A stretch of 52,816 nt of DNA from a virus (Duplodnaviria > Caudoviricetes), in IMG/VR virus record IMGVR_UViG_3300032284_000652, positions 1-52,816 of that record. One strand, written 5' to 3'. Below, in pieces: positions 29,857-52,816 of the stretch (the stretch's first letter is position 1; every line of letters starts with the position of its first letter). The notes beneath the pieces were generated by a model that was given only the letters and a program-made list of their open reading frames with translations, did not search any database and had not been told where the DNA came from. The position numbers and the translations under genes were made by a program.

Positions 29857-31433
29857 CGACATCCGCCAACCAGCGCATGCAAAAGGTCATCGATCTGGCG
29901 CGCGAAATCGCCGCCAAGACGTCCCCCGGCGTGGAAGACGTGCCCATGCCCAAGCCCGGCCAGCCGATCCCTGTGCTGCACTATCCAGTGCCGGGGTTTG
30001 CGAACGGCGGAAAGACCGTGCGGCGGGCGGTTATGGCGGCTAAAGGCAAGGGCGGCTCAACCGGAAAGCAAAACCTACCCATGGATGCGCAAAGCCGTGA
30101 AGAGCGCGCCGCTCAAATGGGTTTTTCGGGTCCGTGGTATCACGGCTCCGCTCGATTGGATCGGGTTGTTTCAGGCGACAAAATTGACCCCAAGCGCGCC
30201 ACGTCCGGTCCTATGCCTTTCTTCACCGACAATCCGGCCATGGCTTCCAATTACGCTACAGGAAAACAGGACACATCGCTGTCGGCTGGCGACACGGGTG
30301 AGACGGCAAATTATTTTACGGTTCATCCGAAAGACTTGGGTTTTTCAGGAAGGAATCCCATTCCGGTTGAAAAAAGCTGGCATTATCTGCCGCCGCACAT
30401 CAGATCACAAATCGCTCAAAGCGCCATGCGGGTGGGTTATCAAGATCAAGATGCCCATGACGGCGACCTTGTCTTGCATCCTGACTTTGGCTCTATCTCA
30501 TCGCCTGATCATTACGCCCATGTGCTAAAGGAACATCGGGGCAACCATTTGGCCGCTTTGCGCGATCTTTGGGTGGATTCGGGCACCCTGCACGGAGAAG
30601 AAGACAAGTTGGCCCACATCTACCGGCTGGCAGGGTATCCGCACCCCATCAGCCAAGAAACAGCCCCATGGGTTGGAGCGAGCGGCGTTCTTCCAGCCAA
30701 GCTCCAAATGAAAAACCCGCTCCGCACATCAGATACAGATTATTTGCATAAAACAGTCATTCCGCATTTGGAGCGCACGTTCAAAAATGATCGGACGCGC
30801 AAATCGCAATATGGCGCTGACATGTGGGATAAAAACCACCGCTACACACCCAAGGAATGGACCGAAACCTTGAAACAAGAATTGGCCAGAGGTGCCAATC
30901 CCATGGTTTTCACTTCCATCCCCGATAAAGTGACCAACGCGCTTCGTGCGCTGGGACATGACGGCATCATAGATACGGGCGGAAAACAGGGGGGCGAAGG
31001 CCACACGGTAGCCATTCCATTTGATGCCCATCAGGTTAGATCGCAATTCGCCAAGTTCGACCCTAAGGATGAGGGGAAATCCGGCTTTAGCAAGGCGGGC
31101 GGCGGATCGGCAGATTGGGATTCGTTGCTTCGACGGCAAAGAGACGTCGAGGGGCTTAAGGCGGCGATCAGGGACCCCCAAACGGGGGAAATCCATTATG
31201 GCCACACTCACAAATCCGTAATGGACGCAGCCTCTCGGCATCCTGATGCGGGTAAATGGAGCAGACTGTCGTGGGAATGGGGAAGTGATGATTCCCCTCA
31301 CGTTGGTTTTGTAACCCAAGAAGGTGATTTTCTGACTCGCGATGAAGCTAATGACAAATTAAAATTTGGTTACACCGCCGAAGATGCGCGCGATTTCCTT
31401 CGTAGAAAAAGGAACAATGGCGGGACGGTTTAA
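29853..31433 (+). CDS. Modular GG-motif protein with ADP-ribosyltransferase-like (ART-PolyVal-like) domain plus a second small domain
   Basis: WYHGS...FFTDNPAMASNYA...VLPAKLQMKNP...GHDGII...PFDAHQVRSQFAKFDP; modules bounded by FANGG/KGKGG, KAGGG and RNNGG. Confidence 0.7.
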   Translation: MTTSANQRMQKVIDLAREIAAKTSPGVEDVPMPKPGQPIPVLHYPVPGFANGGKTVRRAVMAAKGKGGSTGKQNLPMDAQSREERAAQMGFSGPWYHGSARLDRVVSGDKIDPKRATSGPMPFFTDNPAMASNYATGKQDTSLSAGDTGETANYFTVHPKDLGFSGRNPIPVEKSWHYLPPHIRSQIAQSAMRVGYQDQDAHDGDLVLHPDFGSISSPDHYAHVLKEHRGNHLAALRDLWVDSGTLHGEEDKLAHIYRLAGYPHPISQETAPWVGASGVLPAKLQMKNPLRTSDTDYLHKTVIPHLERTFKNDRTRKSQYGADMWDKNHRYTPKEWTETLKQELARGANPMVFTSIPDKVTNALRALGHDGIIDTGGKQGGEGHTVAIPFDAHQVRSQFAKFDPKDEGKSGFSKAGGGSADWDSLLRRQRDVEGLKAAIRDPQTGEIHYGHTHKSVMDAASRHPDAGKWSRLSWEWGSDDSPHVGFVTQEGDFLTRDEANDKLKFGYTAEDARDFLRRKRNNGGTV

Positions 31434-31507: not shown

Positions 31508-32833
31508 ATGTCCGAGCACAAAAGCATCAGGGAGAGCCTGCCTCATGGGGGTCGTGGTCGCACCCGCGCCAAAGTCCTTCTCCGGTCTGACCCGCACAAG
31601 GGCAGCAAGGTCGATGCTTCGGACTACTCTCCGCCGGACGCTCTTGATCCTGATGTAAAGACGGGCATGCGCCCGCTCCGCACGCGCCTCTACAAGCGCG
31701 GTGGCAAGATCGTGAAGGTCCACGGCGAAAACGCCAAGCACCACGCCGGTCGCAAGCCCCGCAAGAGCGGCGGTCGTGCCATCGAGATGATGAACCGCGA
31801 CCAGCGAGACGCCAACGAGGAGCGCGAAGGCTCCAAGCATGAAGGCGCGTTCAAGCGCGGCGGCCGCGCCCACCGGTCTGACGGCGGGTCCTTTGTCCCC
31901 ACCGAGCGCATGAACTTCGGTTCCGCCGGGTCCAGCCGCATGTCCAAGGCCGCCGGTCTGAAGCGCGGCGGCATGGCACATCACGACGACGCCGCCGAAG
32001 ACATGGCGCTGATCAAGAAGACCGTGAAGGCCGACGCCCTGAAGCGCAAGCATGGCGGCAAGGCCCACCGCAAGCACCGTGACATGGGCGACATGCTCGA
32101 TGAGGACGGCGGCGGATACAGCAGCCCCGTCGATCACTCGATGGACGACAACATGCCGGTGTTTACGCCGCGCAAGCGTCCGCAAGACCCGTCCGTGATC
32201 CGTGGCCGTGACATCTACGAGCCGGTCCCGCCGCGCGCCCACGGCGGCAAGGTCGAAATCCACCACGCATCTTGCAAGTGCCACAAGTGCTCCGGCGGCA
32301 GCGCCCACGCCCATGGCGGCAAGGTCGAAGTCCACCACGTTAATTGCGAATGCACCAAGTGCAAGGCGGCTGACCGCAAGGGCCGCTCGACCGGCGGATC
32401 GCTCGACGTGATGGACGGCGAGATGGAGGGCACGCGCCCCACCGGCTATCGCGAAGTCGGCCACCGCTCTGCCCGCAAGCATGGCGGTCGCGCCAAGGGC
32501 AAGACCAACATCAACATCGTGATCGGAGCGCCCGGTCACCACGCTGACGCGGCTCCCGGCGTGGGAATGCCACCTCCTCCTCCCCGTGGCGTTCCCGTGC
32601 CTCCCCCCGCCCCGCCCATGGGCGGCATGCCTCCGGGGATGCCTCCGGGCGGCCCTCCCGGCATGATGCCCCCCGGCATGATGCCTCCCGGCGGAGCGCC
32701 GCCCATGCCACGCAAGCGTGGCGGTCGTGCCATTCCCATGGCGGCTGCGGCGGCTCTGGGCGAGCATGACACAGGCAGCGGCGGCGGTCTGGGCCGCCTC
32801 GCTAAAATTCGGTCCTATGGCCACTACGACTGA
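31508..32833 (+). CDS. His/Arg/Lys-rich protein with ~11 xxxGG motifs and a Pro/Met/Gly-rich tail
   Basis: RBS ggag; YKRGG, RKSGG, FKRGG, RSDGG, LKRGG, RKHGG, RAHGG, HAHGG, RSTGG, RKHGG, RKRGG. Confidence 0.85.
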   Translation: MSEHKSIRESLPHGGRGRTRAKVLLRSDPHKGSKVDASDYSPPDALDPDVKTGMRPLRTRLYKRGGKIVKVHGENAKHHAGRKPRKSGGRAIEMMNRDQRDANEEREGSKHEGAFKRGGRAHRSDGGSFVPTERMNFGSAGSSRMSKAAGLKRGGMAHHDDAAEDMALIKKTVKADALKRKHGGKAHRKHRDMGDMLDEDGGGYSSPVDHSMDDNMPVFTPRKRPQDPSVIRGRDIYEPVPPRAHGGKVEIHHASCKCHKCSGGSAHAHGGKVEVHHVNCECTKCKAADRKGRSTGGSLDVMDGEMEGTRPTGYREVGHRSARKHGGRAKGKTNINIVIGAPGHHADAAPGVGMPPPPPRGVPVPPPAPPMGGMPPGMPPGGPPGMMPPGMMPPGGAPPMPRKRGGRAIPMAAAAALGEHDTGSGGGLGRLAKIRSYGHYD

Positions 32834-33080: not shown

Positions 33081-33470
33081 ATGCCCTACATGGTTATGAC
33101 CCACGACGTCGATCCAAAAGAGGCCCTCCTCAAGGAGATCGGCGACATCGACAGCGTCGAAATCTTCAACAATCAGGTGCTGTGCGCCGTCTACGTGCGC
33201 CCGGAGAAGACCAAGAGCGGCCTTTACATCACCTCCGCCAGCCGCGACGAGGACAAGATTCAGGGCAAGGTCGGCCTGATCCTGAAGAAGGGCCCGGCGG
33301 CCTTCATCGACGACGGCCAGTGGTTTGCCGACACGACGTTTGAGGACGGGGAGTGGGTCGTTTTCCGCCCGTCTGATGGCTGGAGCATCACCGTCAACGG
33401 TGTCCAGTGCCGCATGATCGATGATGTCAATATCCGGGGGCGCATCCAGCACCCCGACCAAGTGTGGTAG
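33081..33470 (+). CDS. groES: GroES-like co-chaperonin
   Basis: VL....PEKTKSGLYI...VGLILKKGP...GEWVVF...RMIDD..I.G pattern of Cpn10. Confidence 0.8.
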   Translation: MPYMVMTHDVDPKEALLKEIGDIDSVEIFNNQVLCAVYVRPEKTKSGLYITSASRDEDKIQGKVGLILKKGPAAFIDDGQWFADTTFEDGEWVVFRPSDGWSITVNGVQCRMIDDVNIRGRIQHPDQVW

Positions 33471-38273: not shown

Positions 38274-38831
38274 ATGAAGCATCATGAACATCACGGACGT
38301 CACCACCGGGCTACCGGCGGCATCAACGAGGCAGAGATGGACCTGCGCGACAAGCCGGAAGCCCGGACTGAAGCCAGGGAAATCGATCACGAAGCCGAAG
38401 AGCGCAAGCACGGCGGCCATGTGAAGCACAAGCGCCATGCCCGCAAGCACGGCGGCGGCATTATGCATGCCCACGGCCATGCCCACCACGGCATCCACGG
38501 CAAGCATCACGAAGGCTTTGGCGCTGAGCACCACACCACCACGAAGCGGACTGCCCGCAAGCGTGGCGGCAAGGCCCTGCACGGCTCTCAAGAGGGCGAG
38601 GGCTTTGGCCCGCAAGACGAGGGCACCAAGATGCGCCGCCGTCATGGTGGTCATGTGAAGCACCACATGGCCAAGCATGTCGGCCACGTCCACGGTGAGC
38701 ATGCCAAGCATCACGCTGGCCGCAAGCCTCGCAAGTCCGGCGGCAAGGTTGGCTCCGACAGCCACCCCTTCACCTCCGCCTTCCACGGCGAGGTCCCGAA
38801 GGGTCGCAAGCTCGACATGGAAATGGACTGA
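38274..38831 (+). CDS. His-rich basic protein with six xxxGG motifs
   Basis: RATGG, RKHGG x2, RKRGG, RRHGG, RKSGG. Confidence 0.85.
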   Translation: MKHHEHHGRHHRATGGINEAEMDLRDKPEARTEAREIDHEAEERKHGGHVKHKRHARKHGGGIMHAHGHAHHGIHGKHHEGFGAEHHTTTKRTARKRGGKALHGSQEGEGFGPQDEGTKMRRRHGGHVKHHMAKHVGHVHGEHAKHHAGRKPRKSGGKVGSDSHPFTSAFHGEVPKGRKLDMEMD

Positions 38832-41644: not shown

Positions 41645-42054
41645 GCAGCCGCAGCCTCATAGACCTGCATCCGACTGTGATGGCCAAGTGTGTGGCCCAC
41701 ATCGCGGCGTGCAAGAACGCAGGCATCGACCTCCTGATCACCTGCACCTACCGCTCGCCCGAAGAGCAGGACGCCCTGTACGCGCAGGGCCGCACGACGC
41801 CGGGCGCGATTGTCACCAATGCCAAGGGCGGGCAGTCGATGCACCAGTACCGCCTCGCCTACGACTGCGTGCCGATCCGCAATGGCAAGTGCGTCTGGGA
41901 TGGCTCCGATCCGGCGTGGGCGACTGTCGGCGAACTGGGCAAGGCGCAGGGCCTCGAATGGGGCCACGACTGGCCCACGTTTCGCGAAATGCCACATTTT
42001 GAACTGACCAACGGCCACCCGCTCTCGTATTTTGAAGGCGGCGGCACGCTGTAG
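41641..42054 (+). CDS. Endolysin, peptidase M15 (L-Ala-D-Glu type)
   Basis: YRSPEEQDALYAQGRT...VTNAKGGQSMH...AYD...LEWG..W..FREMPHFE. Confidence 0.92.
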   Translation: MSSRSLIDLHPTVMAKCVAHIAACKNAGIDLLITCTYRSPEEQDALYAQGRTTPGAIVTNAKGGQSMHQYRLAYDCVPIRNGKCVWDGSDPAWATVGELGKAQGLEWGHDWPTFREMPHFELTNGHPLSYFEGGGTL

Positions 42055-42104
42055 CGCCAAGGGGTGCGATCTGCTACCCTGTCAAGACAATTTCGGGGTA
42101 ATCC

Positions 42105-42857
42105 ATGGCCGCCAGCACCACTGCCCTGACGTACAACTCCTACGTCACTCAGATCGCCACCATGGCGGTGGTCAACACCACTACCAGCGGCGGCCTGACC
42201 GTGTTCTCGGACACGGCCATGCAGAACGCCCTGCCCCAGATGCTGAACTATGCCGAGCTTCGCATCCAGCGCGACCTTGACCTGCTGCCCCTGCAGACCA
42301 CCAACACCACCTACAGCCTTTCCACAGGCAGCAACACCCTGTCGATCCTGACCAGCGACTTCGTGACGCTGCAGAATATCATCCTGACCGGCACCGGCCA
42401 GCCGCTTCTGCCAGTGACCAAGGAGTGGCTGCAGAACGTCTACGGCATCGGATCGACGCGGGGCCCGCCCGCGTACTTTGCGCCCTACGGCGGGGACACC
42501 AGCGGCGGCAACACCAACCAGTATTTCATCGTGGGCCCGATCCCCGATCAGGCCTACGCTTTGACGCTGGTAGGAACGATCCGCATGCCCACGCTTTACG
42601 TGACCAGCGGCACCGGCACCAACACCACCTTCATCTCGACTTACCTGCCGGACCTGCTGATCATGGCCAGCATGATCTACGTCAGCGCCTACCAGCGCAA
42701 CTTTGGACGCCAGAGCGATGATCCGGCCATGGCCCAGTCCTACGAGAGCCAGTACCAAGCCCTCATGAAGGGCGCGATGGTTGAGGAGTATCGGAAACGT
42801 TTTGAAGCTTATGCATGGTCCTCTGAATCGGTCTCGCCCGCAGCAACGAAAGGGTGA
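42105..42857 (+). CDS. Head-tail adaptor-like protein
   Basis: AELRIQRDL...GPPAYFA...VGPIPDQAY...PDLLIMASM. Confidence 0.7.
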   Translation: MAASTTALTYNSYVTQIATMAVVNTTTSGGLTVFSDTAMQNALPQMLNYAELRIQRDLDLLPLQTTNTTYSLSTGSNTLSILTSDFVTLQNIILTGTGQPLLPVTKEWLQNVYGIGSTRGPPAYFAPYGGDTSGGNTNQYFIVGPIPDQAYALTLVGTIRMPTLYVTSGTGTNTTFISTYLPDLLIMASMIYVSAYQRNFGRQSDDPAMAQSYESQYQALMKGAMVEEYRKRFEAYAWSSESVSPAATKG

Positions 42858-42859
42858 CC

Positions 42860-43411
42860 ATGTTTTATGTTTATGAGCATTGGCGTCCTGATCGTAACGA
42901 ATGTTTTTACGTGGGAAAGGGTAAGGGCTCTCGCGCCAACATGATGCGCCGAAGGAATAAATTCCACGCGGCCATTCAAAACAAATTGGCCCGACTTGGT
43001 CTTGCGGTTGAGGTCCGCATTATTGCTCACGGCCTTACAGAAGCCGAGGCATTCGATTTGGAGAGAACGCGCATTGCCTTGTGGCAATCAGACGGAGCCG
43101 ATTTGGCCAATATGACCAAAGGCGGAGATGGCATTTTTGGATTTTCCCATTCCAAAGAAACCCGTGAAAAAATGTCCCGATCTGCGCTTGGCGTAAAAAA
43201 ATCGGACGAAGCTAAAAAAAATATGTCCCTTGCTAAAAGGGGGAAATCTTGTTTTCCGCCATCGCTTCAAAAAGCGATTTTGGCCAAAACTGGAAGGCCC
43301 ACTCCTCCAGAGGTGCGCGCAAAAATGTCCGAAGCTGCTAAGCGACGAGACCCAAAATGTTATGCTCGCATGGTTGCCACTCGCCGGGCTAAAAAGGTCG
43401 AGGAGCAGTAA
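42860..43411 (+). mobile_element. Free-standing GIY-YIG homing endonuclease with NUMOD3-like repeats
   Basis: FYVY.H......FYVGKG...R...E...N.T.GG; HSKETREKMS repeats; AT-rich relative to flanks. Confidence 0.85.
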
Positions 43412-43414
43412 GCC

Positions 43415-45712
43415 ATGCCCCACGCCTCCCTCAAGCTCAAGCCGGGTCTGGATGAGAACGAGACGTTCGCCCTCAACGAGGCGGGCTTCTCGCAGTCCCA
43501 GCTTGTGCGCTTCATCTACGACCGCACGCAGGGCGCTCTGGTGCAGAAGCTGGGCGGCTGGACCAAATACTACTCTACAGCCCTCCCGGCCATCGTGCGG
43601 GCCCTGTGGGCGTGGGTGGACCCCAATCTCAACAGCCACCTCGCCTTCGGCACGCAGACGCTCTCGGGCCAGTCCTACGCGCAGCTTGGCGTCCTGACGA
43701 ACAACAATCTGGCCGTCATCACTCCGTCCACGACCACTGATAACGTGGCCCTCAGTCTCGCCACGACGGCCGGATCGAGCACGGTTACCATCACGGACGG
43801 CACCACCACCGGCATCACGCAATACGATGCTGTGTTCATTCAGACGCACATCGCGGTTGGCGGCACGGTCCTCTACGGCCTGTATCAGACCTTCAATCCG
43901 ACGCTGTCCACGACCACCTACAACGTGGTCGCGCAGGACGCTCTGGGAAACCCCCTTCTGCTGCTCCAGACGGCCTCTACAGCCGTTTTCACGGGCTCCA
44001 TAAGCGGAACCACCCTGACCGTCTCGGCGACCACCAGCGGCACGATACAGGCCAACCAGACGGTCACGGGCGGCACAACCTCAACCGCCACCTTCATCGT
44101 GGCGCAGCTTACCGGCACTGTGGGCGGCATCGGCACCTATCAAGTCAACAACAGCCAGACGGTGGGATCGGCCACCCTGACCGGCACGCCCTACACTGTG
44201 GCGGCTTTCACGACTACCAATGCGCTCAACACGGTCACCGTGACCCTACCCAACCACGGCTACAGCGTCGGCAGCACCTACCCGCTGCTGGTGACGACCA
44301 CGATCAGCGGCATCACGCTCTACGGCAACTACGTGGTCCAGTCGGTTCCCAATAGCTGGTCCTTCGTCATCAACGGCCCGCAGGTCGCCACGTCCTCAAC
44401 TACCGCCTACGTCAATGGCGGCCTTGCGCGATACCTCTACAGCTTCGGCGTTGGTGCAAACCCGGCGGGTACCGGCTACGGCATCAACGGCTACGGCATC
44501 GGCGGTTATGGCACGGGCGCGTCAATCTCTCCCAGCCTCGGAACGCCGATCCCGGCCATCGACTGGACCATGGACAACTGGGGCGGCTACCTCATTTCCT
44601 GCCCTATCAACAGCACCGGCTTCCAGCCGATCTACGTCTACGATCCCACGTCTGGCGGCACGGAGGCGACCTGCATCCCGCAGGGCCCGACCGTCAATGA
44701 TGGCATCTTCGTGGCCATGCCCCAGCGGCAGATCATCGCGTGGGGTTCCAGCTTCACCGGCATTCAGGACCCACTCCTGATCCGGTGGTGCGATGTGAAC
44801 AACTTCACCACATGGATCGCCCAAATCACGAACCAAGCGGGCTCCTACCGCCTGCCGAAGGGCTCCAAGATCGTCGGGGCCATGCAGGGTCCGCAGCAGG
44901 GTCTGGTATGGACTGACGTGGACGTGTGGGCCATGCAGTACGTCGGCCAGCCCTACATCTACAGCTTCAACGAAATCGGCTCCGGGTGCGGCCTGATCGG
45001 GCGCAAAGCCATGGCCTCGATCAACGGCTCCATCTACTGGATGGGCACGTCGTCCTTCTTCTCCCTGACCGGCGGCGGCGTGCAGCCGGTGGCGTGCCCG
45101 ATCTGGGACGTGATCTTCCAGCAACTGGACCAGACCAACCTCTACAAGATCAGGACAGCAGTGAACTCGCTCTTCGGGGAGATCACATGGTACTACCCCA
45201 CCACGTCGTCCGGGGGCGAAGTGACGGCCTATGCCAAGTACAATGTGAACCTTGGCGTCTGGGACTTCGGCAACCTTGGCCGGTCGGCGTGGATTGACAA
45301 GTCCGTGCTGGGAAACCCCATTGGGGCTGATCCGTCGAGCCTGTACCTGTATCAGCATGAGACCTCGAACGACGCGGACGGCACGGCCATGGCCAGCAAC
45401 TTCCAGACCGGCTATTTCGCGACCAGCGAGGGCGACTACAAGGTCTTCGTCGATCAGGTGTGGCCCGACATGAAGTGGGGCACATATGGGGGCACCCAGA
45501 ACGCCACGGTGAACATCACCTTTTCAACGGCGGATTACCCCGGCGGCACGGTCACGACCTATGGCCCCTACCCCGTGGTTCAGGGAACCAGCTTCATCAG
45601 TCCCCGGTTCCGGGCACGCCTGATGTCCATTACCATCGGCAGCAGTGACGTTGGCAGCTTCTGGCGTCTGGGCAACATTCGCTATCGCCTCCAGCAAGAT
45701 GGGAAATACTGA
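43415..45712 (+). CDS. Tail nozzle/stabilisation protein (P22 gp10-like)
   Basis: 765 aa beta-rich; LKPG...VRF...QKLGGW; DPLLIRWCD...W.....NQAGS.RL..GS.I; ends RLG..R.....DG. Confidence 0.75.
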   Translation: MPHASLKLKPGLDENETFALNEAGFSQSQLVRFIYDRTQGALVQKLGGWTKYYSTALPAIVRALWAWVDPNLNSHLAFGTQTLSGQSYAQLGVLTNNNLAVITPSTTTDNVALSLATTAGSSTVTITDGTTTGITQYDAVFIQTHIAVGGTVLYGLYQTFNPTLSTTTYNVVAQDALGNPLLLLQTASTAVFTGSISGTTLTVSATTSGTIQANQTVTGGTTSTATFIVAQLTGTVGGIGTYQVNNSQTVGSATLTGTPYTVAAFTTTNALNTVTVTLPNHGYSVGSTYPLLVTTTISGITLYGNYVVQSVPNSWSFVINGPQVATSSTTAYVNGGLARYLYSFGVGANPAGTGYGINGYGIGGYGTGASISPSLGTPIPAIDWTMDNWGGYLISCPINSTGFQPIYVYDPTSGGTEATCIPQGPTVNDGIFVAMPQRQIIAWGSSFTGIQDPLLIRWCDVNNFTTWIAQITNQAGSYRLPKGSKIVGAMQGPQQGLVWTDVDVWAMQYVGQPYIYSFNEIGSGCGLIGRKAMASINGSIYWMGTSSFFSLTGGGVQPVACPIWDVIFQQLDQTNLYKIRTAVNSLFGEITWYYPTTSSGGEVTAYAKYNVNLGVWDFGNLGRSAWIDKSVLGNPIGADPSSLYLYQHETSNDADGTAMASNFQTGYFATSEGDYKVFVDQVWPDMKWGTYGGTQNATVNITFSTADYPGGTVTTYGPYPVVQGTSFISPRFRARLMSITIGSSDVGSFWRLGNIRYRLQQDGKY

Positions 45713-46164
45713 TGGCGCTCGGACCCGTCACCCTTGGCCCAAACATGGGCGGAGCCTCGGTCTCCGACATCCTGACCGCGTTCAAGAACAACGTGGTCGC
45801 GATCTCGAACCTCGGGACCTACATCCAGAGCATCTACAACAACGTGCCGACCCAGCAGTTGTCCGGCGGCGCGGCCACCACGGCCACGTCCACCCTGTTC
45901 ACGGCCTCATCCGGCGCGCGGGCGCACCTGAACACCATCAATGTCTGCAACACGTCGTCGTCGGCGGTGACTTTCTCGATCTACATTGTCGCGCCCGGCG
46001 GCACGGCCAGCGCCGCCAATGCTATCTTCTATAACTGCCCCTTGACGCCCAACACGACCACGCTCTGGACCGGCACGCTCATCGTGCCCGCAGGCGGCTC
46101 GATACAGGCCTCGGCCTCCTCCACGGCCGTGACGTTCAATCTGGCTGGGGGGAATGCGGTATGA
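45712..46164 (+). CDS. Virion structural protein
   Basis: TGATG coupling; short helix followed by a Thr/Ser beta domain. Confidence 0.7.
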   Translation: MALGPVTLGPNMGGASVSDILTAFKNNVVAISNLGTYIQSIYNNVPTQQLSGGAATTATSTLFTASSGARAHLNTINVCNTSSSAVTFSIYIVAPGGTASAANAIFYNCPLTPNTTTLWTGTLIVPAGGSIQASASSTAVTFNLAGGNAV

Positions 46165-46940
46165 GCCTGTCATCCTTTCCCGCCTTTGCCGGATCGACCG
46201 AGAGCACGCTCACAGCGCCGTGGTACATGCAGGTGGCGCGCGGGCTGGTGCCGGGCGCGTCGGTGATCAACATCTACGGCTACCAGACCGCCCTGCCTGC
46301 CAGCGGCGGCGCGACCTACTATCCGGTGTGGGAGAACACTACCGCGTACACCTACCCCGTGTCGGCCACGACCATGCTGCTCTGGTCATCGTCGGCGTCT
46401 GACACCAACGTGTCGGTGCTGATCCAAGGCCTCGACGCCTCATACAACCAGATTTCCGAGACGCTGGTTCTGACCAATGGCACGACGGGCGTGACCACGG
46501 TCAACAGCTACCTGCGGATCAACGGCATCCAGACCACCGGCTCAGTTAACGCAGTCGGCACCATCAATTTGGGTAACGCCGGAAAGACGATCCAATACGC
46601 TGAAATTGTTGCGGGCAACGGCAAGTCCCAGATGATGATCTACACCGTGCCGAATGGGTACACGTTCTATTTGACGCGGTCGAATGCCTACTCCAGCCTC
46701 AACGGCAACACGGCGGGCAACTACGCCAACTACCGGGTGCAGACGTTCTCATCCACTGGCCTTGTCCAAAATGTGCTGCAGGCCCCCTTTACGACCAACT
46801 ACCAGACCATGCGCGTGGCCCCTCGGGCGTACACGCAGAAGACCGACATCCAATGGCAGGCCGCAGGCAACCCGGCGTCCGGCACCTTCTCTGTCGGCAT
46901 CGGCGTCGAGGGCGTCCTGATCCTCAACGGCAGCGCATAA
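46161..46940 (+). CDS. Virion structural protein
   Basis: QVARGLVPG...SSSASDT...GLDASYN..SE...YTVPNGYTFY. Confidence 0.7.
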   Translation: MSLSSFPAFAGSTESTLTAPWYMQVARGLVPGASVINIYGYQTALPASGGATYYPVWENTTAYTYPVSATTMLLWSSSASDTNVSVLIQGLDASYNQISETLVLTNGTTGVTTVNSYLRINGIQTTGSVNAVGTINLGNAGKTIQYAEIVAGNGKSQMMIYTVPNGYTFYLTRSNAYSSLNGNTAGNYANYRVQTFSSTGLVQNVLQAPFTTNYQTMRVAPRAYTQKTDIQWQAAGNPASGTFSVGIGVEGVLILNGSA

Positions 46941-46950
46941 GGGGCTCACC

Positions 46951-49140
46951 ATGCCACTGACCAAGGGCAAATCCCAGAAGACCATCAGCCACAACATCAG
47001 CGAGATGATCGACGCTGGACATCCGAGGGATGTTGCCATCGCCGCTGCGCTGAACACGGCGCGGAAGGTGGCGAAGGCGGGCGGGGGTCCGACAGAGGCG
47101 CAGAAAGAGGCCGGAAACTACAAGAAGCATCACATGCGGTTTCAGGGCCTCGACATTGCCATTGAAAATCTCAAGGGCTCTACGCGCAGCGGCGTCGGCC
47201 CCACAGGTGCGCGGTGGTCTGTCGTCATGCCCGCCGACTATGGCTACATCAAACGGACGGAGGGCGCAGACGGCGACCATGTCGATTGCTATGTCGGACC
47301 TCACTCCGATAGCAGAGAGATTTACGTCGTTGATCAGATCGACCCCCGCACCAAAAAGTTTGACGAGCACAAATGCTTCCTCGGCTTCAAGTCGGAGGCT
47401 GACGCCGTCAAGACCTACGACCGTGGGTTCAGCGACGGCAGCGGCCCCCGCCGCCGCGCTTCTGTCCACACTATGACAATGCAGGAATTCAAGCATTGGT
47501 TGGAGTTCGGCGACACGACAAAGCGCGTAGCCCGCGCCTCCGGCGGCGGCCTCTACGCCAACATCCACGCCAAGCAGGAGCGCATCGCCCACGGCTCCAA
47601 GGAGCACATGCGCAAGCCCGGTGCGGCGGGAGCGCCCACGGCGGCGGCCTTCAAGCAGTCGGCGCGGACGGCCAAGGCGGGTGGCGGTGAGACTGAGAAC
47701 AAGAACTACGGCTCTCACAAGGGCCGTCCGTTCTGGTCTGGGATTTATGACACGCGAGATGGATTCATCCGAGAGACCCACCCTTATGAAAGGGCGGAAA
47801 AAGTAGACTTCCATCATTCGTACTATGTCAGCCCGCAGTCTCAGGATGCCATGCGCCATGGCGAGGCTGGGTTCTTCTGGATGGAACCCGACAAGTCCAT
47901 TCAAACGCATTGGCGCGATGGCGAAGCCCCTCCGCACATTGTCCGCGCTATCAAAGCGCAGCTTGATCCCGTCATCCAGAACGCGGGTGGCGGCGATGTG
48001 GAAGGTCGCTACCTAAATGCTCAAGGACTTTACAGCGCCCGCGCCTCCGGCGGAGGCCTCTACGCCAACATCCACGCCAAGCAGCAGCGCATCGCCCACG
48101 GCTCCAAGGAGCACATGCGCAAGCCCGGCAGCCCCGGCGCTCCCACGGCGGCGGCCTTCAAGCAGTCCGAACGCACCGCCCGCGCTGACGGCGGCCCCGT
48201 CCTCACGCCCCACGGCACGGTGGAGGACCACGGCCGCACCATGCCGGAGACGGCCCACACGCTGGCCCTGCAGCATCAGGCGCTGCTGGAGGGCCGCAAG
48301 GCGGCGGTCCTGTACCCCCACAATGGCCACAAGCCGCCCCACCCCGCCCACGGGCAGGGCGTGACCAGCATCAAGGACGGCATTGTCCACTACAACCCGG
48401 CCGTGCTGACCGAGCATCAAATCCACGCGGCGGCCGACGCTGACCGGCTCAACGAAATTCTGGGCCTCGGGCCGTTCAACAAGAACGACGTCTGGCAGCG
48501 GGTGCAAAACGGGGAGCGGTCTGTGGGCGTGGTGTCGCGCGACAGGCACGGCCATGAGGCATCGGCGGCGTTGGGCACTGAGGAGACCGCCCCCGCCCAA
48601 ATGGAAGCCCTGCAGGCCCACATGCCCGAGGGCGGCAGCGTCAGCATCGAGCACCCCATGGAAACTCTACAAGGACGCCAAGCGCACGCCTCCGGCGGCC
48701 AAGTGACCGAGAAGCTGCACACGGGCCCGATTTACTCCCCGGTGGCCGGGCGCACCGATCACCTGCCCATGCACGTCCCCAGCGGCTCCTATGTGATCCC
48801 GGCGGACATCATCAGCGCCATGGGCGAGGGCAACACCATGGCGGGCTTCAAGCACATGCGGCGCATGTTCTCGGGCGCTCCCTACGGCGGCGACGGGGAC
48901 GTGCCCTACGGCGGCTCCGGCGGGCCCTACAACGAGCCCCTGAAGGCGAGCGGCGGCTCGACCCAGTCGGTGCCCATCGTGGCCGCTGGCGGTGAATATG
49001 TGTTGGCACCCCATGAGGTGAAATATGCGGGCGGCGGCGACCTTGACGCTGGCCACCGCGTTCTGGATGACTTCGTGAAGCGTTATCGTTCCCAGACCAT
49101 CAAGACGTTGTCTAAACTTCCGGGGCCAAAGCGCGATTAA
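46951..49140 (+). CDS. Modular GG-delimited polyprotein including an inorganic-pyrophosphatase-like domain
   Basis: Eight xAxGG boundaries; PTEAQKEAGNYKK...IEN.KGS.RSG...DYGYI..T.GADGDHVD...FDEHK..LGF domain; duplicated LYANIHAK module. Confidence 0.8.
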   Translation: MPLTKGKSQKTISHNISEMIDAGHPRDVAIAAALNTARKVAKAGGGPTEAQKEAGNYKKHHMRFQGLDIAIENLKGSTRSGVGPTGARWSVVMPADYGYIKRTEGADGDHVDCYVGPHSDSREIYVVDQIDPRTKKFDEHKCFLGFKSEADAVKTYDRGFSDGSGPRRRASVHTMTMQEFKHWLEFGDTTKRVARASGGGLYANIHAKQERIAHGSKEHMRKPGAAGAPTAAAFKQSARTAKAGGGETENKNYGSHKGRPFWSGIYDTRDGFIRETHPYERAEKVDFHHSYYVSPQSQDAMRHGEAGFFWMEPDKSIQTHWRDGEAPPHIVRAIKAQLDPVIQNAGGGDVEGRYLNAQGLYSARASGGGLYANIHAKQQRIAHGSKEHMRKPGSPGAPTAAAFKQSERTARADGGPVLTPHGTVEDHGRTMPETAHTLALQHQALLEGRKAAVLYPHNGHKPPHPAHGQGVTSIKDGIVHYNPAVLTEHQIHAAADADRLNEILGLGPFNKNDVWQRVQNGERSVGVVSRDRHGHEASAALGTEETAPAQMEALQAHMPEGGSVSIEHPMETLQGRQAHASGGQVTEKLHTGPIYSPVAGRTDHLPMHVPSGSYVIPADIISAMGEGNTMAGFKHMRRMFSGAPYGGDGDVPYGGSGGPYNEPLKASGGSTQSVPIVAAGGEYVLAPHEVKYAGGGDLDAGHRVLDDFVKRYRSQTIKTLSKLPGPKRD
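47530..48167 (+). repeat. Two near-identical 131-bp direct repeats (47530-47660 and 48037-48167)
   Basis: Both encode ARASGGGLYANIHAKQ.RIAHGSKEHMRKPG..GAPTAAAFKQS. Confidence 0.95.
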
Positions 49141-49186
49141 GGATGATGAAATTCCCCATGAACCTTAATGGCCGCAAGGATTGAAT

Positions 49187-49702
49187 ATGACCGAGACCCC
49201 AGAGAAGCTGTCCGTCCGCATCGGCACGCCGGAGGATGTCCACCGCATGATGGACATCGCGCTCATGGCCACGTCCGAGAACAGCTTCGCGTCTCCCAAC
49301 AAGATGAAGCTGCTGCAGGAAATCTGGGCCGCCCTGAACCTGCGCCATGGCCTTGTCGGCATCATCGGCGAGCCCGGCGAGATGATCGAGGGCGCGGTCC
49401 TGCTGCGCATCGGGCAGGTCTGGTACAGCGACGAGCCGATCCTTGAGGAGAAGGCCATCTTCATCCACCCGGACTATCGCAGCGCCAAGGGAGGGCGTGC
49501 GGCCCGGTTGTGTGAGTTTTCCAAGAAGGCTTCCGATGAATTGGGCATCCCCTTGACCATCGGGGTCATGAGCAACGAAAGAACTGCAGCCAAGGTGCGG
49601 ATGTATACCCGCATTATGGGGCCTCCCAGCGGGGCATATTGGTTGTATAACACCACGACCGGCGGGCACGGCATCGCTGCACCTGTGGCAGAAAAGGACT
49701 AA
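49187..49702 (+). CDS. GNAT-fold acyltransferase-like protein
   Basis: VRIGTPEDV...IFIHPDYRS..G.RAARL...K; directly upstream of the first ejection gene. Confidence 0.65.
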   Translation: MTETPEKLSVRIGTPEDVHRMMDIALMATSENSFASPNKMKLLQEIWAALNLRHGLVGIIGEPGEMIEGAVLLRIGQVWYSDEPILEEKAIFIHPDYRSAKGGRAARLCEFSKKASDELGIPLTIGVMSNERTAAKVRMYTRIMGPPSGAYWLYNTTTGGHGIAAPVAEKD

Positions 49703-49705
49703 GCT

Positions 49706-52700
49706 ATGGGCGGCAAGAGCAGCACTTCAACACAGCAGGTTTCGATCCCCCCCGAAGTGCTGGCCCGTTATAACTCCGTCAACGCCACGGCGGAGCAGGC
49801 TGCCGCCCAGCCCTTTCAGGCCTACAACGGCCAGTTCGTGGCCCCGCTGTCCTCCACGCAGGAGGCCGGGATCGCCAACACCAACACCGCCGCCGGTCAG
49901 GCGCAGCCCTACTATCAGCAAGCCACAGGCACTCTCATGGGCGCGCAGCAGGCGACCTCGCCCTACTATCAGGCCGCCACGCAGGCCCTGATGTCCGGCC
50001 TCGGACAGGGCGGCTACGGCACGCAGGCCGCTTACGGATCGCTCTACGGCGCGAACGCCGCTGCCGCGCCCCTGCAGGCCGCCGGGGCCTACAACATGGG
50101 CGCAGCCTACGCTGGGGCCCAGCCGTTCAATCGGCAGGCTGCTCAGGGCCTCGGGGCCGCGCAGCAGGCTGGCGCTGGCTATACCGCGCAGGGCTACAAC
50201 AGCGCCCAGCCCTACAACATGGCCGCTACCGGGCTTGCGGCGGCGGGCGCTGCTCCGGTGAATGCCCAGCAGATCGGCGGGCAGCAGATCGGCCAGTTCA
50301 TGTCGCCCTATATCGGGTCGGTCCTGCAGGGCACTGAGGGCATCCTGAATCAGCAGAACCAGCAGGCCCTGTCCGGCCAGCTTGGCAATGCGATCCAGTC
50401 CGGGGCCTTCGGCGGGGACCGGGCCGGGCTGGCGGCCGCGAACCTTGCGCAGCAGCAGCAACTGGCGAACGCCCAGACCTACTCCGGCATCCTGAACCAA
50501 GGCTACGGGCAGGCGCTGGCGGCCGCGCAGCAGCAGCAGGGCGTGAACTTGAGCGCCGAGCAGGCGAACCGCGCCGCCCTGCAGCAGGCGTCGGGCCAGA
50601 TGCTGGGCATCGGCCAGCAGGGATACGCGCAAGGCCTCGGGGCCGGGCAGCAGCTTTACGGGCAGGGCCTGTCCGCAGCCCAGCAGCAGGCCGCGCTTGG
50701 CCAGCAGCTTTACGGGCAGGGCATGGGCCTCGCCTCGGCGCAGACCGGCCTCGGGCAGCAGCTTTACGGGCAGGGCGCGACGACATCCCAGCAGCAGGCT
50801 GCGCTGGCCCAGCAGCAATACGCTCAGGGCCTCGGCGGCGCGAGCGGGCTGTCCAGCCTCGGCCAGAACATTTACGGCACTGGCGCTCAGACCGCGCAGC
50901 AACTGGCCGCACTGGGGACCGGCGCTCAGGGCGCGTCCCTCGCCGGGGCTCAGGCCCAGCTTGCCGCCGGTCAGCAGCAACAGCAGACCCAACAGGCGCA
51001 GGATCAGGCTCTCTACAACCAGTTTCTGCAGCAACAGTCCTATCCGTTCCAGACGGCCCAGTTCCTCGCGAACATCGCGGAGGGCACCGGCTCGCTGTCT
51101 GGCTCGACCACGACCACGACGCAGCCGGGCGGCTTCTTCTCCGACGAGCGGCTGAAGGAGAACATCAAGCCCATCGGTAAGACGAACGACGGGCAGACGA
51201 TCTACAGCTACAACTACAAGGGCGACCACCGCACCCAGATCGGCCTGCTGGCGCAGGAGGTCGAGAAGCGCCACCCCGAGGCCGTGGGCCTCGCGGGCGG
51301 CTATAAGACCGTGGACTACGCCAAGGCGACCCACGACGCCGAGCGCCATCGCCGGGCCTCTGGCGGCGGTCTGGTGGGCGCTGGAGACGCCTACAGGGGC
51401 TTCGCTGACGGCGGCGTGCCCGGCTTCGACCCCACGCTGGCCCAGAGCATGGCCGCCACCGAGACCGGCATGTTTGGCCCCTATGGCACGTCCGGTGGCC
51501 TTGGCGGCGGCCACAGCCGCGTGCCCGGCGCGACCCTGCCGGTCGGCCATCTGCAGACCGCTGGCGCCCTCGCGCCGCAGAAGTCCGGCCTTGAGCAAGG
51601 GGCCGAGATGGCCAACCTGCTGGGAACCGCCGAAAAGGATTACGACTGGGCCAAGAAGACGTTTGCCGGCTCATGGCGCGGTGGGCTGCGCGGCGGTTAC
51701 GCCGATGGCGGCATGCCTTACGGCCAAGAGACGCAGGGCCTCGACATTCCCGACGAACAAAAGTCCACGCCTCAACTTGCGACGGCCCAAGGCTCGCCCG
51801 GCAAGGGCCGCAGCGGCATGGACGATGTCATGGACATGGCAAAGATCGCGACCATGGCTATGAAACTCAAGCGTGGCGGCCGGATCGGCAAGGCGGACGG
51901 CGGCGGCTTTGACGACGACTCGTGGGATGCGAACTGGGACGACGACGGCACGCCCTTTGGCGATACGACGGCAGATTCATCCGCCACCAATACGTACGAT
52001 ATCGCCGCGCTGTTGAACAAGATTAACCCCTTCGCCTCGCATCAGCAAAATGTGCAGCATCCTGCCGCGCCTGCGCCCGCGCCCACCAACATGACTGGTG
52101 GATTGGCTGGAGCCATCGCCAAAGTCGAGGGCGTCGGCAAAAACCCGACCTCCTCCGCCAAGGGGATGTATCAACTGACCGACCCCACCTTCATTGACAT
52201 GTACCGCAAGAACTTCGGCGATCAGGCCAAGGCCATGAGCGACAAGCAGATCATTGCCCTGCGCAACAGTCCGCAAGGTGAGCAACTTTCCGAAGCGCTG
52301 GGCCCGAAGCTGATCCAGCACAACATCAATGTCCTGCGTCAGAACGGCGTGAACACCACCGCTGGCAATGTCTACCTTGCGCACTTCCTCGGGCCGTTTG
52401 CGGCCATCAGGGTGCTGAATGCCCACCCCGACCAGAACGTGGCCGATATTGTGTCTCACAGCGCTATTCACGCCAACAAAAGCATCCTTCAGGGCAAGAG
52501 CGTCCGCGATGTGATCAATTGGGCGCAGCAGAAGATGGCCCATGCCGGGGCCGACCCGCGCACCGCCTTCGCCAAGGGCGGGCTGGCCGGATCACGCAAG
52601 GGCTACAGTGGAGACGATGGCGACAGCTACGTCGATGGCGCGTTCCCGGGCGACACCGATCCATACGCACCGGATCAGGCGACGCCCTACACGCCGCCGC

Positions 52701-52816
52701 CGGGCGGCGGCCCGACAAGCAAGGCCACGCCCGACACCGCGCCGCAGGGCGGCGGCCCGACAAGCAAGGCCACGCCCGACACCGCGCCGCAGGGCGGCGG
52801 CCCGACAAGCAAGGCC
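49706..52816 (+). CDS. N-terminal part of giant ejection polyprotein: Gln-rich DNA-transfer region, S74 autoprocessing domain, GG-linked segments, lytic transglycosylase-like domain
   Basis: Open from ATG 49706 (MGGKSSTSTQQVSIPPEV) to the contig end; SDERLKENI...IGLLAQEVEKRHPEAV at 51140; AIAKVEG..KNPTSSAKGMYQ...VYLAHFLGP at ~52110-52400. Absent from the ORF track because it has no stop in the window. Confidence 0.88.
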   Translation, partial: MGGKSSTSTQQVSIPPEVLARYNSVNATAEQAAAQPFQAYNGQFVAPLSSTQEAGIANTNTAAGQAQPYYQQATGTLMGAQQATSPYYQAATQALMSGLGQGGYGTQAAYGSLYGANAAAAPLQAAGAYNMGAAYAGAQPFNRQAAQGLGAAQQAGAGYTAQGYNSAQPYNMAATGLAAAGAAPVNAQQIGGQQIGQFMSPYIGSVLQGTEGILNQQNQQALSGQLGNAIQSGAFGGDRAGLAAANLAQQQQLANAQTYSGILNQGYGQALAAAQQQQGVNLSAEQANRAALQQASGQMLGIGQQGYAQGLGAGQQLYGQGLSAAQQQAALGQQLYGQGMGLASAQTGLGQQLYGQGATTSQQQAALAQQQYAQGLGGASGLSSLGQNIYGTGAQTAQQLAALGTGAQGASLAGAQAQLAAGQQQQQTQQAQDQALYNQFLQQQSYPFQTAQFLANIAEGTGSLSGSTTTTTQPGGFFSDERLKENIKPIGKTNDGQTIYSYNYKGDHRTQIGLLAQEVEKRHPEAVGLAGGYKTVDYAKATHDAERHRRASGGGLVGAGDAYRGFADGGVPGFDPTLAQSMAATETGMFGPYGTSGGLGGGHSRVPGATLPVGHLQTAGALAPQKSGLEQGAEMANLLGTAEKDYDWAKKTFAGSWRGGLRGGYADGGMPYGQETQGLDIPDEQKSTPQLATAQGSPGKGRSGMDDVMDMAKIATMAMKLKRGGRIGKADGGGFDDDSWDANWDDDGTPFGDTTADSSATNTYDIAALLNKINPFASHQQNVQHPAAPAPAPTNMTGGLAGAIAKVEGVGKNPTSSAKGMYQLTDPTFIDMYRKNFGDQAKAMSDKQIIALRNSPQGEQLSEALGPKLIQHNINVLRQNGVNTTAGNVYLAHFLGPFAAIRVLNAHPDQNVADIVSHSAIHANKSILQGKSVRDVINWAQQKMAHAGADPRTAFAKGGLAGSRKGYSGDDGDSYVDGAFPGDTDPYAPDQATPYTPPPGGGPTSKATPDTAPQGGGPTSKATPDTAPQGGGPTSKA
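52702..52816 (+). repeat. 45-bp coding tandem repeat, right end of contig
   Basis: Same unit as at 1-122. Confidence 0.97.

Follow-up and report, generated by a model that had tools for sequence, protein, structure and literature searches.

A putative polyvalent virion protein of an uncultured podovirus combines constant ends with variable cargo joined by a conserved junction motif

Introduction

How does a phage gene come to hold many unrelated domains in one chain, and what is the short glycine-rich element that recurs between them? These questions are raised by the open reading frame (ORF) at positions 46951 to 49140 (+ strand; 729 amino acids [aa], starting MPLTKGKSQKTISHNI) of the virus record IMGVR_UViG_3300032284_000652 (Duplodnaviria; Caudoviricetes), whose whole stretch of 52,816 nucleotides (nt) is called the window here. 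An initial annotation, made from the sequence alone, read the gene as a nine-segment polyprotein caught in the act of module shuffling. Polyvalent proteins are thought to deliver ready-made counterdefense enzymes along with phage DNA, and, to our knowledge, the building, packing, and separation of such chains are largely unexplained. We find that the gene is modular in its anatomy, that its cargo varies among relatives, that breakpoints fall in motif codons, that its modules also stand alone, and that the motif is conserved at the protein level. It is likely, in our judgment, that its product is a polyvalent effector protein carried in the virion of an uncultured podovirus, with constant ends and a variable, motif-joined cargo.

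Results

Junction motifs and modules

A regular expression applied to the 729-aa translation recovered eight junction motifs, each at exactly the base given in the initial annotation: KAGGG (47074 to 47088), RASGG (47533, or RASGGG at 47533 to 47550), KAGGG (47674 to 47688), NAGGG (47980 to 47994), RASGG (48040, or RASGGG at 48040 to 48057), RADGG (48181 to 48195), HASGG (48685 to 48699), and KASGG (48943 to 48957), numbered here junctions 1 to 8; like all features of the gene, they lie on the + strand. Two extra motif-like strings, YAGGG at 49024 and VAAGG at aa 678, occur in the same protein. The eight [KRHN]AxGG occurrences compare with 0.25 expected, and 0/500 composition-preserving shuffles of the protein reached eight; among the other 42 ORFs of the window, 35 contain none and 7 contain one or two. 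The segments between the motifs, as had been proposed, are independent modules, each with homologs of its own, and a fixed order without stand-alone versions was found for no segment.

Constant ends

The two ends of the protein are constant across its family. A search of IMG/VR with the last 146 aa (the anchor) returned 411 relatives, the best 80 of which were fetched and form the basis of the family counts. In these best 80 of 411, the anchor lies at the C terminus in 80/80 and the leader at the N terminus in 78/80, a different N terminus replacing it in 2/80. In L042 and L049, a stretch of ~130 aa rich in S, T, P, and G stands in place of the leader, with no leader-type ORF upstream of either. 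What lies between the ends varies: 53 of the 80 relatives have no cargo and consist of leader plus anchor (190 to 236 aa), 13 carry one LYANIHAK unit (a basic module described below), 7 a LYANIHAK unit with other cargo, and 5 other cargo only, with ART-PolyVal (PF18760) and GNAT domains among the cargo. Lengths across the 80 loci run from 190 to 517 aa, and none reaches that of the window gene. Forms of 734, 964, 1088, and 1220 aa were found in protein databases, with leaders 85 to 95% identical to that of the window.

Cargo thus turns over behind leaders that are 85 to 98% identical to the window's, from the cargo-free, 192-aa P0394 (98%) through the 392-aa form with InPase and LYANIHAK (L003/P0129; P0129, 98%) and the 729-aa window protein to the longer P0395 (734 aa, 95%), P0136 (964 aa, 85%), and P0142 (1088 aa, 95%). 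The order changes as well: P0462 has LYANIHAK before InPase, the opposite of the window. At least six architectures have near-identical ends in common, and near-identical frames hold from zero to at least six cassettes.

The leader (aa 1 to 41, 46951 to 47073) matches the PHROG profile phrog_2423, its aa 1 to 42 aligning with positions 1 to 42 of 52 (E = 1e-13), and a leader-type ORF of 52 aa is free-standing in phiCbK, which agrees with the initial annotation of the leader as a stand-alone small ORF in other phages. In an AlphaFold2 model of a 191-aa relative, the leader forms a two-helix hairpin (helices 9 to 21 and 26 to 39), followed by a disordered junction and then by a strand-strand-helix-helix unit that occurs twice, with a disordered PY/G-rich spacer in between. 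Anchor repeat C1 (HTGPIxSxVAGRTDHLPMHVPSGSYVIPADI...; 48700 to 48942 with the spacer) is nearly invariant among 25 aligned relatives, and anchor repeat C2 (VPIVAAGGEYVL...LPGPKRD; 48958 to 49137) has the same strand-strand-helix-helix arrangement; hhalign aligned C1 with C2 over 37 columns (probability 57%, E = 1e-4). Junction 8 lies within the anchor, and in P0247 an unk102 domain (see below) is inserted at this KASGG junction. In BFVD, the only matches of the frame model (leader and anchor) at E ≤ 0.001 were three uncharacterized proteins of uncultured phages, and the weaker rows were leader-like small proteins and N termini of larger proteins.

Leader-type N termini also occur on Mu-I-like head maturation protease/scaffold proteins, namely, gp43 of Acinetobacter phage AbP2 (L083) and gp26 of Burkholderia phage BcepB1A (L084). 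In the latter, the residues between leader and protease read like a Nudix box by eye, no family search having been made. These proteases and the Nudix-like reading therefore suggest that the “leader plus cargo” arrangement is used beyond this family. In an unrelated 38.8-kb podovirus (L089, MW202483.1), the stretch from 2400 to 2814, which has the terminase and portal genes on either side, holds a LYANIHAK-type ORF and, directly after it, a small ORF of leader type; the two modules stay together here without being fused.

Cargo modules

The pyrophosphatase-like domain of the polyvalent type that had been claimed is indeed present. InPase (PF18823), a type I inorganic-pyrophosphatase-like domain, spans aa 49 to 185 (47095 to 47505) and matches model positions 1 to 135 of 135 with 172.8 bits against a cutoff of 26.8 (E = 4e-51). 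It is the single Pfam family found in the 729-aa protein, the other segments having no Pfam family even at E values up to 10. The same domain lies at the C terminus of a solved phage portal (PDB 9b41, chain L, 765 aa) at residues 636 to 760 (E = 3.8e-26), where GADGDHVDCYVG of the window protein aligns with GADGDEVDCFVG and the acidic stretch GADGDHVDC with GADGDEVDC. It also matches phrog_4660, a “minor head protein” (E = 2e-34).

Two stretches of the protein (copy 1, 47551 to 47673; copy 2, 48058 to 48180) match phrog_16028 (positions 5 to 47 of 50, E = 5e-23) and represent the LYANIHAK unit. The initial annotation had it as a small ORF of its own, and so we find it: free-standing in Roseobacter phages CRP-5 (50 aa) and CRP-810 (52 aa) and in 387 protein clusters of 26 to 84 aa. 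It is also found at the N terminus of a 170-aa S-RIP2 protein and in 1124 clusters of 85 to 2000 aa, in which its partners are DUF6321, ART-PolyVal, InPase, or GNAT. Fusion to DUF6321 (PF19846) is very frequent, in proteins of 130 to 190 aa (P0147, P0169, and ~50 others), and in these fusions K-x-x-GG flanks the unit on both sides.

Two further domains, here called unk102 (aa 247 to 343, 47689 to 47979) and unk169 (aa 416 to 578, 48196 to 48684; alpha/beta), are widespread and without a Pfam name. An exhaustive HMMER search with both gave 1736 cluster representatives at E ≤ 0.001, so that the absence of any relative in IMG/VR pattern scans with unk169 and with unk102 is a limit of the pattern method. 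For unk102, neither Pfam nor PHROG gave a match, and the ESM Atlas gave only scores of 0.81 to 0.83 to unnamed clusters. Its homologs are free-standing at 92 to 114 aa (P0288, P0308, P0319, and P0334) or lie N-terminal to ART-PolyVal in proteins of 663 to 1165 aa. The description of this domain as AT-richer holds, the segment 47689 to 47994 having a GC content of 0.56 and a third-position GC content (GC3) of 0.65, below the seven other segments longer than 20 codons (GC, 0.59 to 0.73; GC3, 0.67 to 0.94); the 20-codon remnant segment has a GC content of 0.60 and a GC3 of 0.50. Homologs of unk169 are free-standing at 163 to 178 aa and also occur inside proteins of up to 5599 aa. Its AlphaFold2 model reached a mean predicted local distance difference test (pLDDT) score of 92.4 and a predicted template modeling (pTM) score of 0.83, with no clear counterpart among solved structures (E of 0.14 at best in Foldseek; Z of at most 5.2, over 73 residues, in VIA-align), one chance-level match in a PDB sequence profile search (E = 0.33), and no usable match in the ESM Atlas. 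Either domain may be among the numbered domains of Iyer et al. 2017.

Between junctions 4 and 5 lie only 15 aa (DVEGRYLNAQGLYSA; 47995 to 48039), of which 13/15 are identical to residues 94 to 108 of P0136 (964 aa); P0167, P0395, P0458, and P0252 are matched more weakly at the same position. To judge from these alignments, the stretch corresponds to the start (15 residues) of a ~560-aa module that is complete in relatives, P0136 among them, and the “short remnant” of the initial annotation thereby gains a probable parent. The DNA of a relative with the intact module, sought in order to map the deletion, was found only in versions of 24 to 29% identity. In a related 56.5-kb phage, a 29% version of the ~560-aa module lies ~30 kb away in another gene (L103, which shares its contig with L070). 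L029 and L035 carry a “GHEGRHR” cargo that might be read as ParB-like; Pfam gave no match for it.

Exchange at the junctions

Compared with L003, the window is 92.9% identical over 41694 to 47699 and 90.8% identical over 48694 to 51366, and L003 is without the ~1 kb between (47700 to 48693). The two alignments overlap by 20 nt encoding the junction, and both breakpoints lie in motif codons, the left one in junction 3 and the right one in junction 7. Three of the window's junctions agree in 13 to 15 of 15 nt. Across 82 cargo-bearing members, 981/2802 BLAST alignment ends lie within 4 aa of a motif versus 440 expected, by what is a crude measure.

A 131-bp duplication beginning at the motif had been taken as direct evidence that motif-bounded units are copied. 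The direct repeat is real and motif-bounded, starting 3 nt before the first motif codon and ending at the last codon of the next motif; it is longer (158 nt; 47530 to 47687 versus 48037 to 48194) and more diverged (86.7% identity) than described. A fresh tandem duplication was rejected, the copies being 86.7% identical and the DNA flanking them in the window and L003 ~92.9% identical. The single LYANIHAK copy of L003 is 89.9% identical to copy 1 and 90.8% identical to copy 2, and because each copy is thus closer to that of L003 than to the other, the two apparently predate the split of the window phage and L003 or were acquired separately. Two LYANIHAK copies occur in only 1/81 genes (80 loci plus the window), that of the window itself. 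Shuffling caught “in the act” therefore does not extend to the duplication; it stands in the ~1-kb difference from L003, with its breakpoints in the motif, and in the 15-aa remnant.

The junction motif

GG directly follows the leader in 95/97 distinct members, with R or K at position -3 in 67 and A at position -2 in 68. In the 80 loci plus the window, all LYANIHAK units (22/22) have GGG immediately before them and xxxGG after them. The junction Gly codons, two per junction, comprise four synonymous codons in proportions like those of control conserved Gly residues, in genes of 48 to 68% GC, and the motif is therefore not merely DNA microhomology. Nor is it a property of the cargo, since unk169 has ordinary linkers in other lineages: it is flanked by xxxGG in 9 proteins related to those of this virion (on both sides in 8; downstream only in P0256), and in 4 giant proteins of other lineages it adjoins no motif and is set in ordinary P/T/A/E-rich linkers. 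Within the lineage, the motif also borders these modules in three further virion-protein scaffolds. From these comparisons, the motif appears to be kept at the protein level and to be specific to this phage lineage. In the model of the 191-aa relative, residues 41 to 49, which form the junction behind the leader, have a pLDDT below 50 and are predicted to be exposed or flexible.

The word polyprotein, in the sense of a cleaved precursor, found no such backing. The protease scan covered the 43 listed ORFs of the window, many of them by only Pfam or PHROGs, with shorter ORFs outside it, and within this scope no peptidase family was found except a self-cleaving S74 chaperone in the neighboring protein; there was none in the 729-aa protein itself.

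Genome context

The window is an entire IMG/VR virus record, with its recognized genes all on the + strand. Among them are matches to a UvrD-type helicase, a C5 methylase, a PrimPol-DUF3987 protein, the large terminase, portal, a GroES-like protein, the major head protein, and tail-fiber-like proteins. The GroES-like co-chaperonin ORF (33081 to 33470; phrog_3188, E = 4e-10) lies within the head gene block. Upstream of the 729-aa gene are structural genes, including those matching phrog_3287 (virion structural protein) and phrog_8198. Directly downstream is a 173-aa ORF without a Pfam or PHROG match and without similarity to the GNAT cargo of relatives, which we do not name an acetyltransferase on this evidence. 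The protein encoded at 49706 to 52816 (+ strand; >1037 aa) is of the transglycosylase/Peptidase_S74 internal or ejection type, matching phrog_4067 (transglycosylase), phrog_4287 (DNA ejection protein), and PF13884 (Peptidase_S74), and it contains RASGG, KADGG, and several xADGG motifs. Its homologs carry unk169.

The gene family belongs to uncultured podoviruses that are distant relatives of pelagiphages HTVC023P/027P. The window portal is 62% identical to that of uncultured phage MW202675 and 30 to 34% identical to those of Pelagibacter phages HTVC027P/023P, Roseobacter phages CRP-901/902, and Caulobacter phage RW. MW202675 has the same gene order, and its syntenic homolog (193 aa; leader plus C-terminal part) precedes genes annotated as “putative acetyltransferase” and “internal virion protein D.”

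The window ends carry an exact 92-nt terminal repeat (1 to 92 and 52725 to 52816) made of units of a 45-nt tandem repeat (peptide PDTAPQGGGPTSKAT) that is located inside the large transglycosylase gene. The frame 49706 to 52816 runs off the window end, and the open frame 3 to 1757 begins with the same repeat peptide. Because the repeat is intragenic and the frame continues in this way, the “direct terminal repeat” may be an assembly closure within a gene repeat and not a true genome end.

Two ORFs, at 31508 to 32833 (441 aa) and 38274 to 38831 (185 aa), encode very basic, His-rich proteins with many [KR]-x-x-G-G-[KR] repeats (>10 [KR]xxGG repeats) and a stretch in common (HGE.AKHHAGRKPRKSGG); neither has a Pfam or PHROG match. 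The 441-aa protein contains two HH..C.C.KC knuckles and a Pro/Gly/Met-rich tail, and its homologs carry LYANIHAK, homologs elsewhere bearing this unit as an insert (P0243). The 526-aa post-portal ORF (29853 to 31433), whose homologs carry unk169 or LYANIHAK, gave a subthreshold match to ART-PolyVal (22 bits against a cutoff of 31) and is 57% identical to part of P0279 (792 aa). P0279 goes on with an unk169 domain and then an anchor-like HVGPIKSDVAGRTDH segment, and this phage therefore seems to have a further polyvalent scaffold in the post-portal ORF.

Discussion

We propose that the 729-aa protein is built to carry cargo. Its two constant parts, a two-helix leader of 40 aa and an anchor of 146 aa made of two small strand-strand-helix-helix units, would direct the protein to the capsid or internal core and let it leave by way of the tail; the cargo array between them differs from phage to phage. 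In the window, the InPase domain would likely hydrolyze pyrophosphate or a signal derived from nucleotides in a cell that has just been infected; the very basic, 45-aa LYANIHAK unit, present twice, may bind nucleic acid; and the rest of the array consists of two further domains and the stump of a deleted large module. The [K/R]-A-x-G-G element joining the modules is short, predicted to be exposed, and selected at the protein level. Because all junctions encode the same residues, cassettes could be gained, lost, and reordered in frame at motif codons.

We infer the location in the virion, the injection, and the roles of leader, anchor, and cargo from gene order and analogies. InPase domains are probably found inside capsids, because they are fused to portal and minor head proteins (9b41 and phrog_4660). 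Alternatively, the gene could encode a cytoplasmic late protein, neither packaged nor injected, that merely lies within the structural gene block, and the lack of a match to a named internal virion protein family in the PHROG scans would agree with this. We nevertheless give this alternative only a slim chance, as the position near the ejection-type transglycosylase protein is conserved in the window and MW202675, the leader is common to prohead proteases, InPase and ART-PolyVal are described for packaged polyvalent proteins, and InPase is part of a solved portal chain. Several further points, besides the reliance on gene order and analogies, weigh against the reading of the protein as a virion-carried effector. 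The leader-anchor frame matches no named internal-virion or ejection family in PHROG scans; its model is of moderate confidence (pLDDT, 65) and has no PDB match at E ≤ 0.001, i.e., no solved structural relative. For the InPase active site, the assessment covered a single conserved Asp-rich stretch, and 4/6 cargo pieces have no assigned function. In a collection of 50,697 records, the anchor was found in no cultured phage except for weak 35-residue matches, and the larger census of 195 distinct members is biased, many having been fetched by LYANIHAK or leader queries.

What the motif does can be read in several ways. It might be a recombination scar, that is, the DNA microhomology footprint of cassette exchange with no function in the protein. 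Both breakpoints between the window and L003 fall within the ~20-nt junction-coding overlap, and the near-identity of three window junctions points the same way; the synonymous variation at junction Gly codons, however, equals that of controls, the motif is kept in genes of 48 to 68% GC, and it stands behind the leader even in the 53 genes without cargo, which have no insertion, all of which makes a mere scar very unlikely. A reading that we take seriously, short of calling it probable, is that the chain remains uncleaved, like beads on a string, with the motif serving as a helix cap and hinge for independent domain folding and threading: the chain would unfold and pass through the portal/tail channel, and the motif might also dock another virion component. 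Basic helical tails are predicted right before GG, in leader helix 26 to 39 and in unk169 helix 154 to 162, the junction is predicted to be disordered, no protease was found in the scanned window ORFs apart from S74, and the motif stands in front of both anchor repeats, whose loss from the chain would disable the frame. Flexibility alone, however, would leave the conserved Ala and basic residue unaccounted for, as well as the lineage specificity and the ordinary P/T/A/E-rich linkers that unk169 has elsewhere. The alternative is a true polyprotein, in which [K/R]-A-x-G-G would be cut after Gly-Gly at head maturation or after injection, releasing modules singly and chopping the neighboring basic repeat proteins into short peptides. 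The motif is held to a far narrower form than linkers in general (GG, always; A at -2, 68/95; R/K at -3, 67/95; middle position, free), is selected as amino acids and not as DNA, and sits in a segment predicted to be exposed; free-standing module homologs begin and end about where cuts at the motifs would fall; the motif is lineage specific and recurs in several presumed internal proteins, including those encoded at 31508 to 32833 and 38274 to 38831; and Iyer et al., in the main text, propose that polyvalent proteins need processing into units (PMC5512222). Cleavage is nevertheless rather unlikely in our view: the 43 scanned ORFs offer no peptidase other than the intramolecular S74, although a host enzyme is possible; the head module looks protease-free, with only GroES-like, scaffold-like, and major-head matches; and VAAGG and YAGGG occur inside the conserved C2 fold, which cutting there would destroy.

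The family offers an unusually clean natural system, with near-identical frames holding different numbers of cassettes. The same cassettes move among four virion-protein scaffolds, with one junction signal kept at the protein level, and of the two unnamed widespread domains, unk169 has a fold predicted with high confidence and without a solved relative. If the motif were a code for cleavage or docking, this would account for the way in which any domain can be made injectable, and new effectors could be sought by a simple rule, namely, as anything between two motifs. It is rather unlikely, in our view, that [K/R]-A-x-G-G is the cleavage code of a Gly-Gly-specific phage or host protease and that this lineage packs true polyproteins. 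If it were, the proteins cut would include the leader-anchor carrier, the post-portal ART-like protein, the basic KRGG-repeat proteins, and the transglycosylase protein, a phage-specific effector cocktail and short basic peptides would be released, and any domain between motifs would be deliverable cargo. A word search of the literature, blind to sequence motifs, found no description of a Gly-Gly processing system for tailed phages.

Comparison with known systems

In phage T4, internal proteins are targeted to the capsid by an N-terminal sequence that the prohead protease cuts off. The window protein resembles them in having a short N-terminal leader, which in T4 is found on head-packed, injected proteins and here also heads prohead proteases; unlike in T4, the leader here is a predicted 40-aa folded hairpin that is also a free small protein, and no protease was found among the scanned ORFs of this phage. 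Like the genes of T7-type gp14 to gp16, the gene lies just upstream of that for a large transglycosylase-bearing protein, but no family-level similarity to them appeared among 15 PHROG hits or in the Pfam scan. Adenovirus core-protein precursors are cut at (M/I/L)XGG-X by a viral cysteine protease. For the cleavage reading only, these would offer an analogy as basic, DNA-associated virion proteins with repeated Gly-Gly sites, although they have different residues before GG and belong to a eukaryotic virus, and no related protease was found here. The InPase-fused head proteins (the 9b41 portal and phrog_4660) have the same type of InPase domain, as does BcepF1 gp124, an InPase fused to a head protein that is cited by Iyer et al. 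(PMC5512222); in the 9b41 portal, however, InPase is a fixed C-terminal extension, whereas here it is an optional cassette in a separate carrier.

The closest parallels are with the polyvalent proteins described in the main text of Iyer et al. 2017 (PMC5512222), a class of phage or conjugative element origin with two to fifteen distinct domains per polypeptide, in which InPase is confined to phage-type members likely packaged in the virion. The window protein contains a leader, InPase, two LYANIHAK units, unk102, unk169, and a two-repeat anchor, with independent homologs for each; it is encoded by a virus record with terminase, portal, and major head matches; and the repertoire is of the variable polyvalent kind, with InPase here and ART-PolyVal and GNAT in relatives. 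As in the class so described, unrelated effector-type domains share one chain, their sets vary between relatives, and the gene context is late/structural. Unlike in that class, the cargo lies between a leader and an anchor that are both fixed, and the same [K/R]AxGG element stands at every junction. Scans of the 729-aa protein gave no MPTase or any other peptidase, no MuF, and no helicase/methylase core; an MPTase in the same chain is frequent in the class and not obligatory (PMC5512222). In the main text of that article, the words “linker” and “glycine” occur 0 times, and no junction motif is named in section 23 or the other passages considered; PMC9599517, on HTVC023P-type phages, contains none of six terms of relevance, and a word search found no literature description of the frame or motif. 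As far as the main text of PMC5512222 defines the class, the gene belongs to the known polyvalent proteins, in a new and very regular form; what is new relative to that class is the fixed leader, the fixed anchor, and cassettes joined by one conserved, lineage-specific motif.

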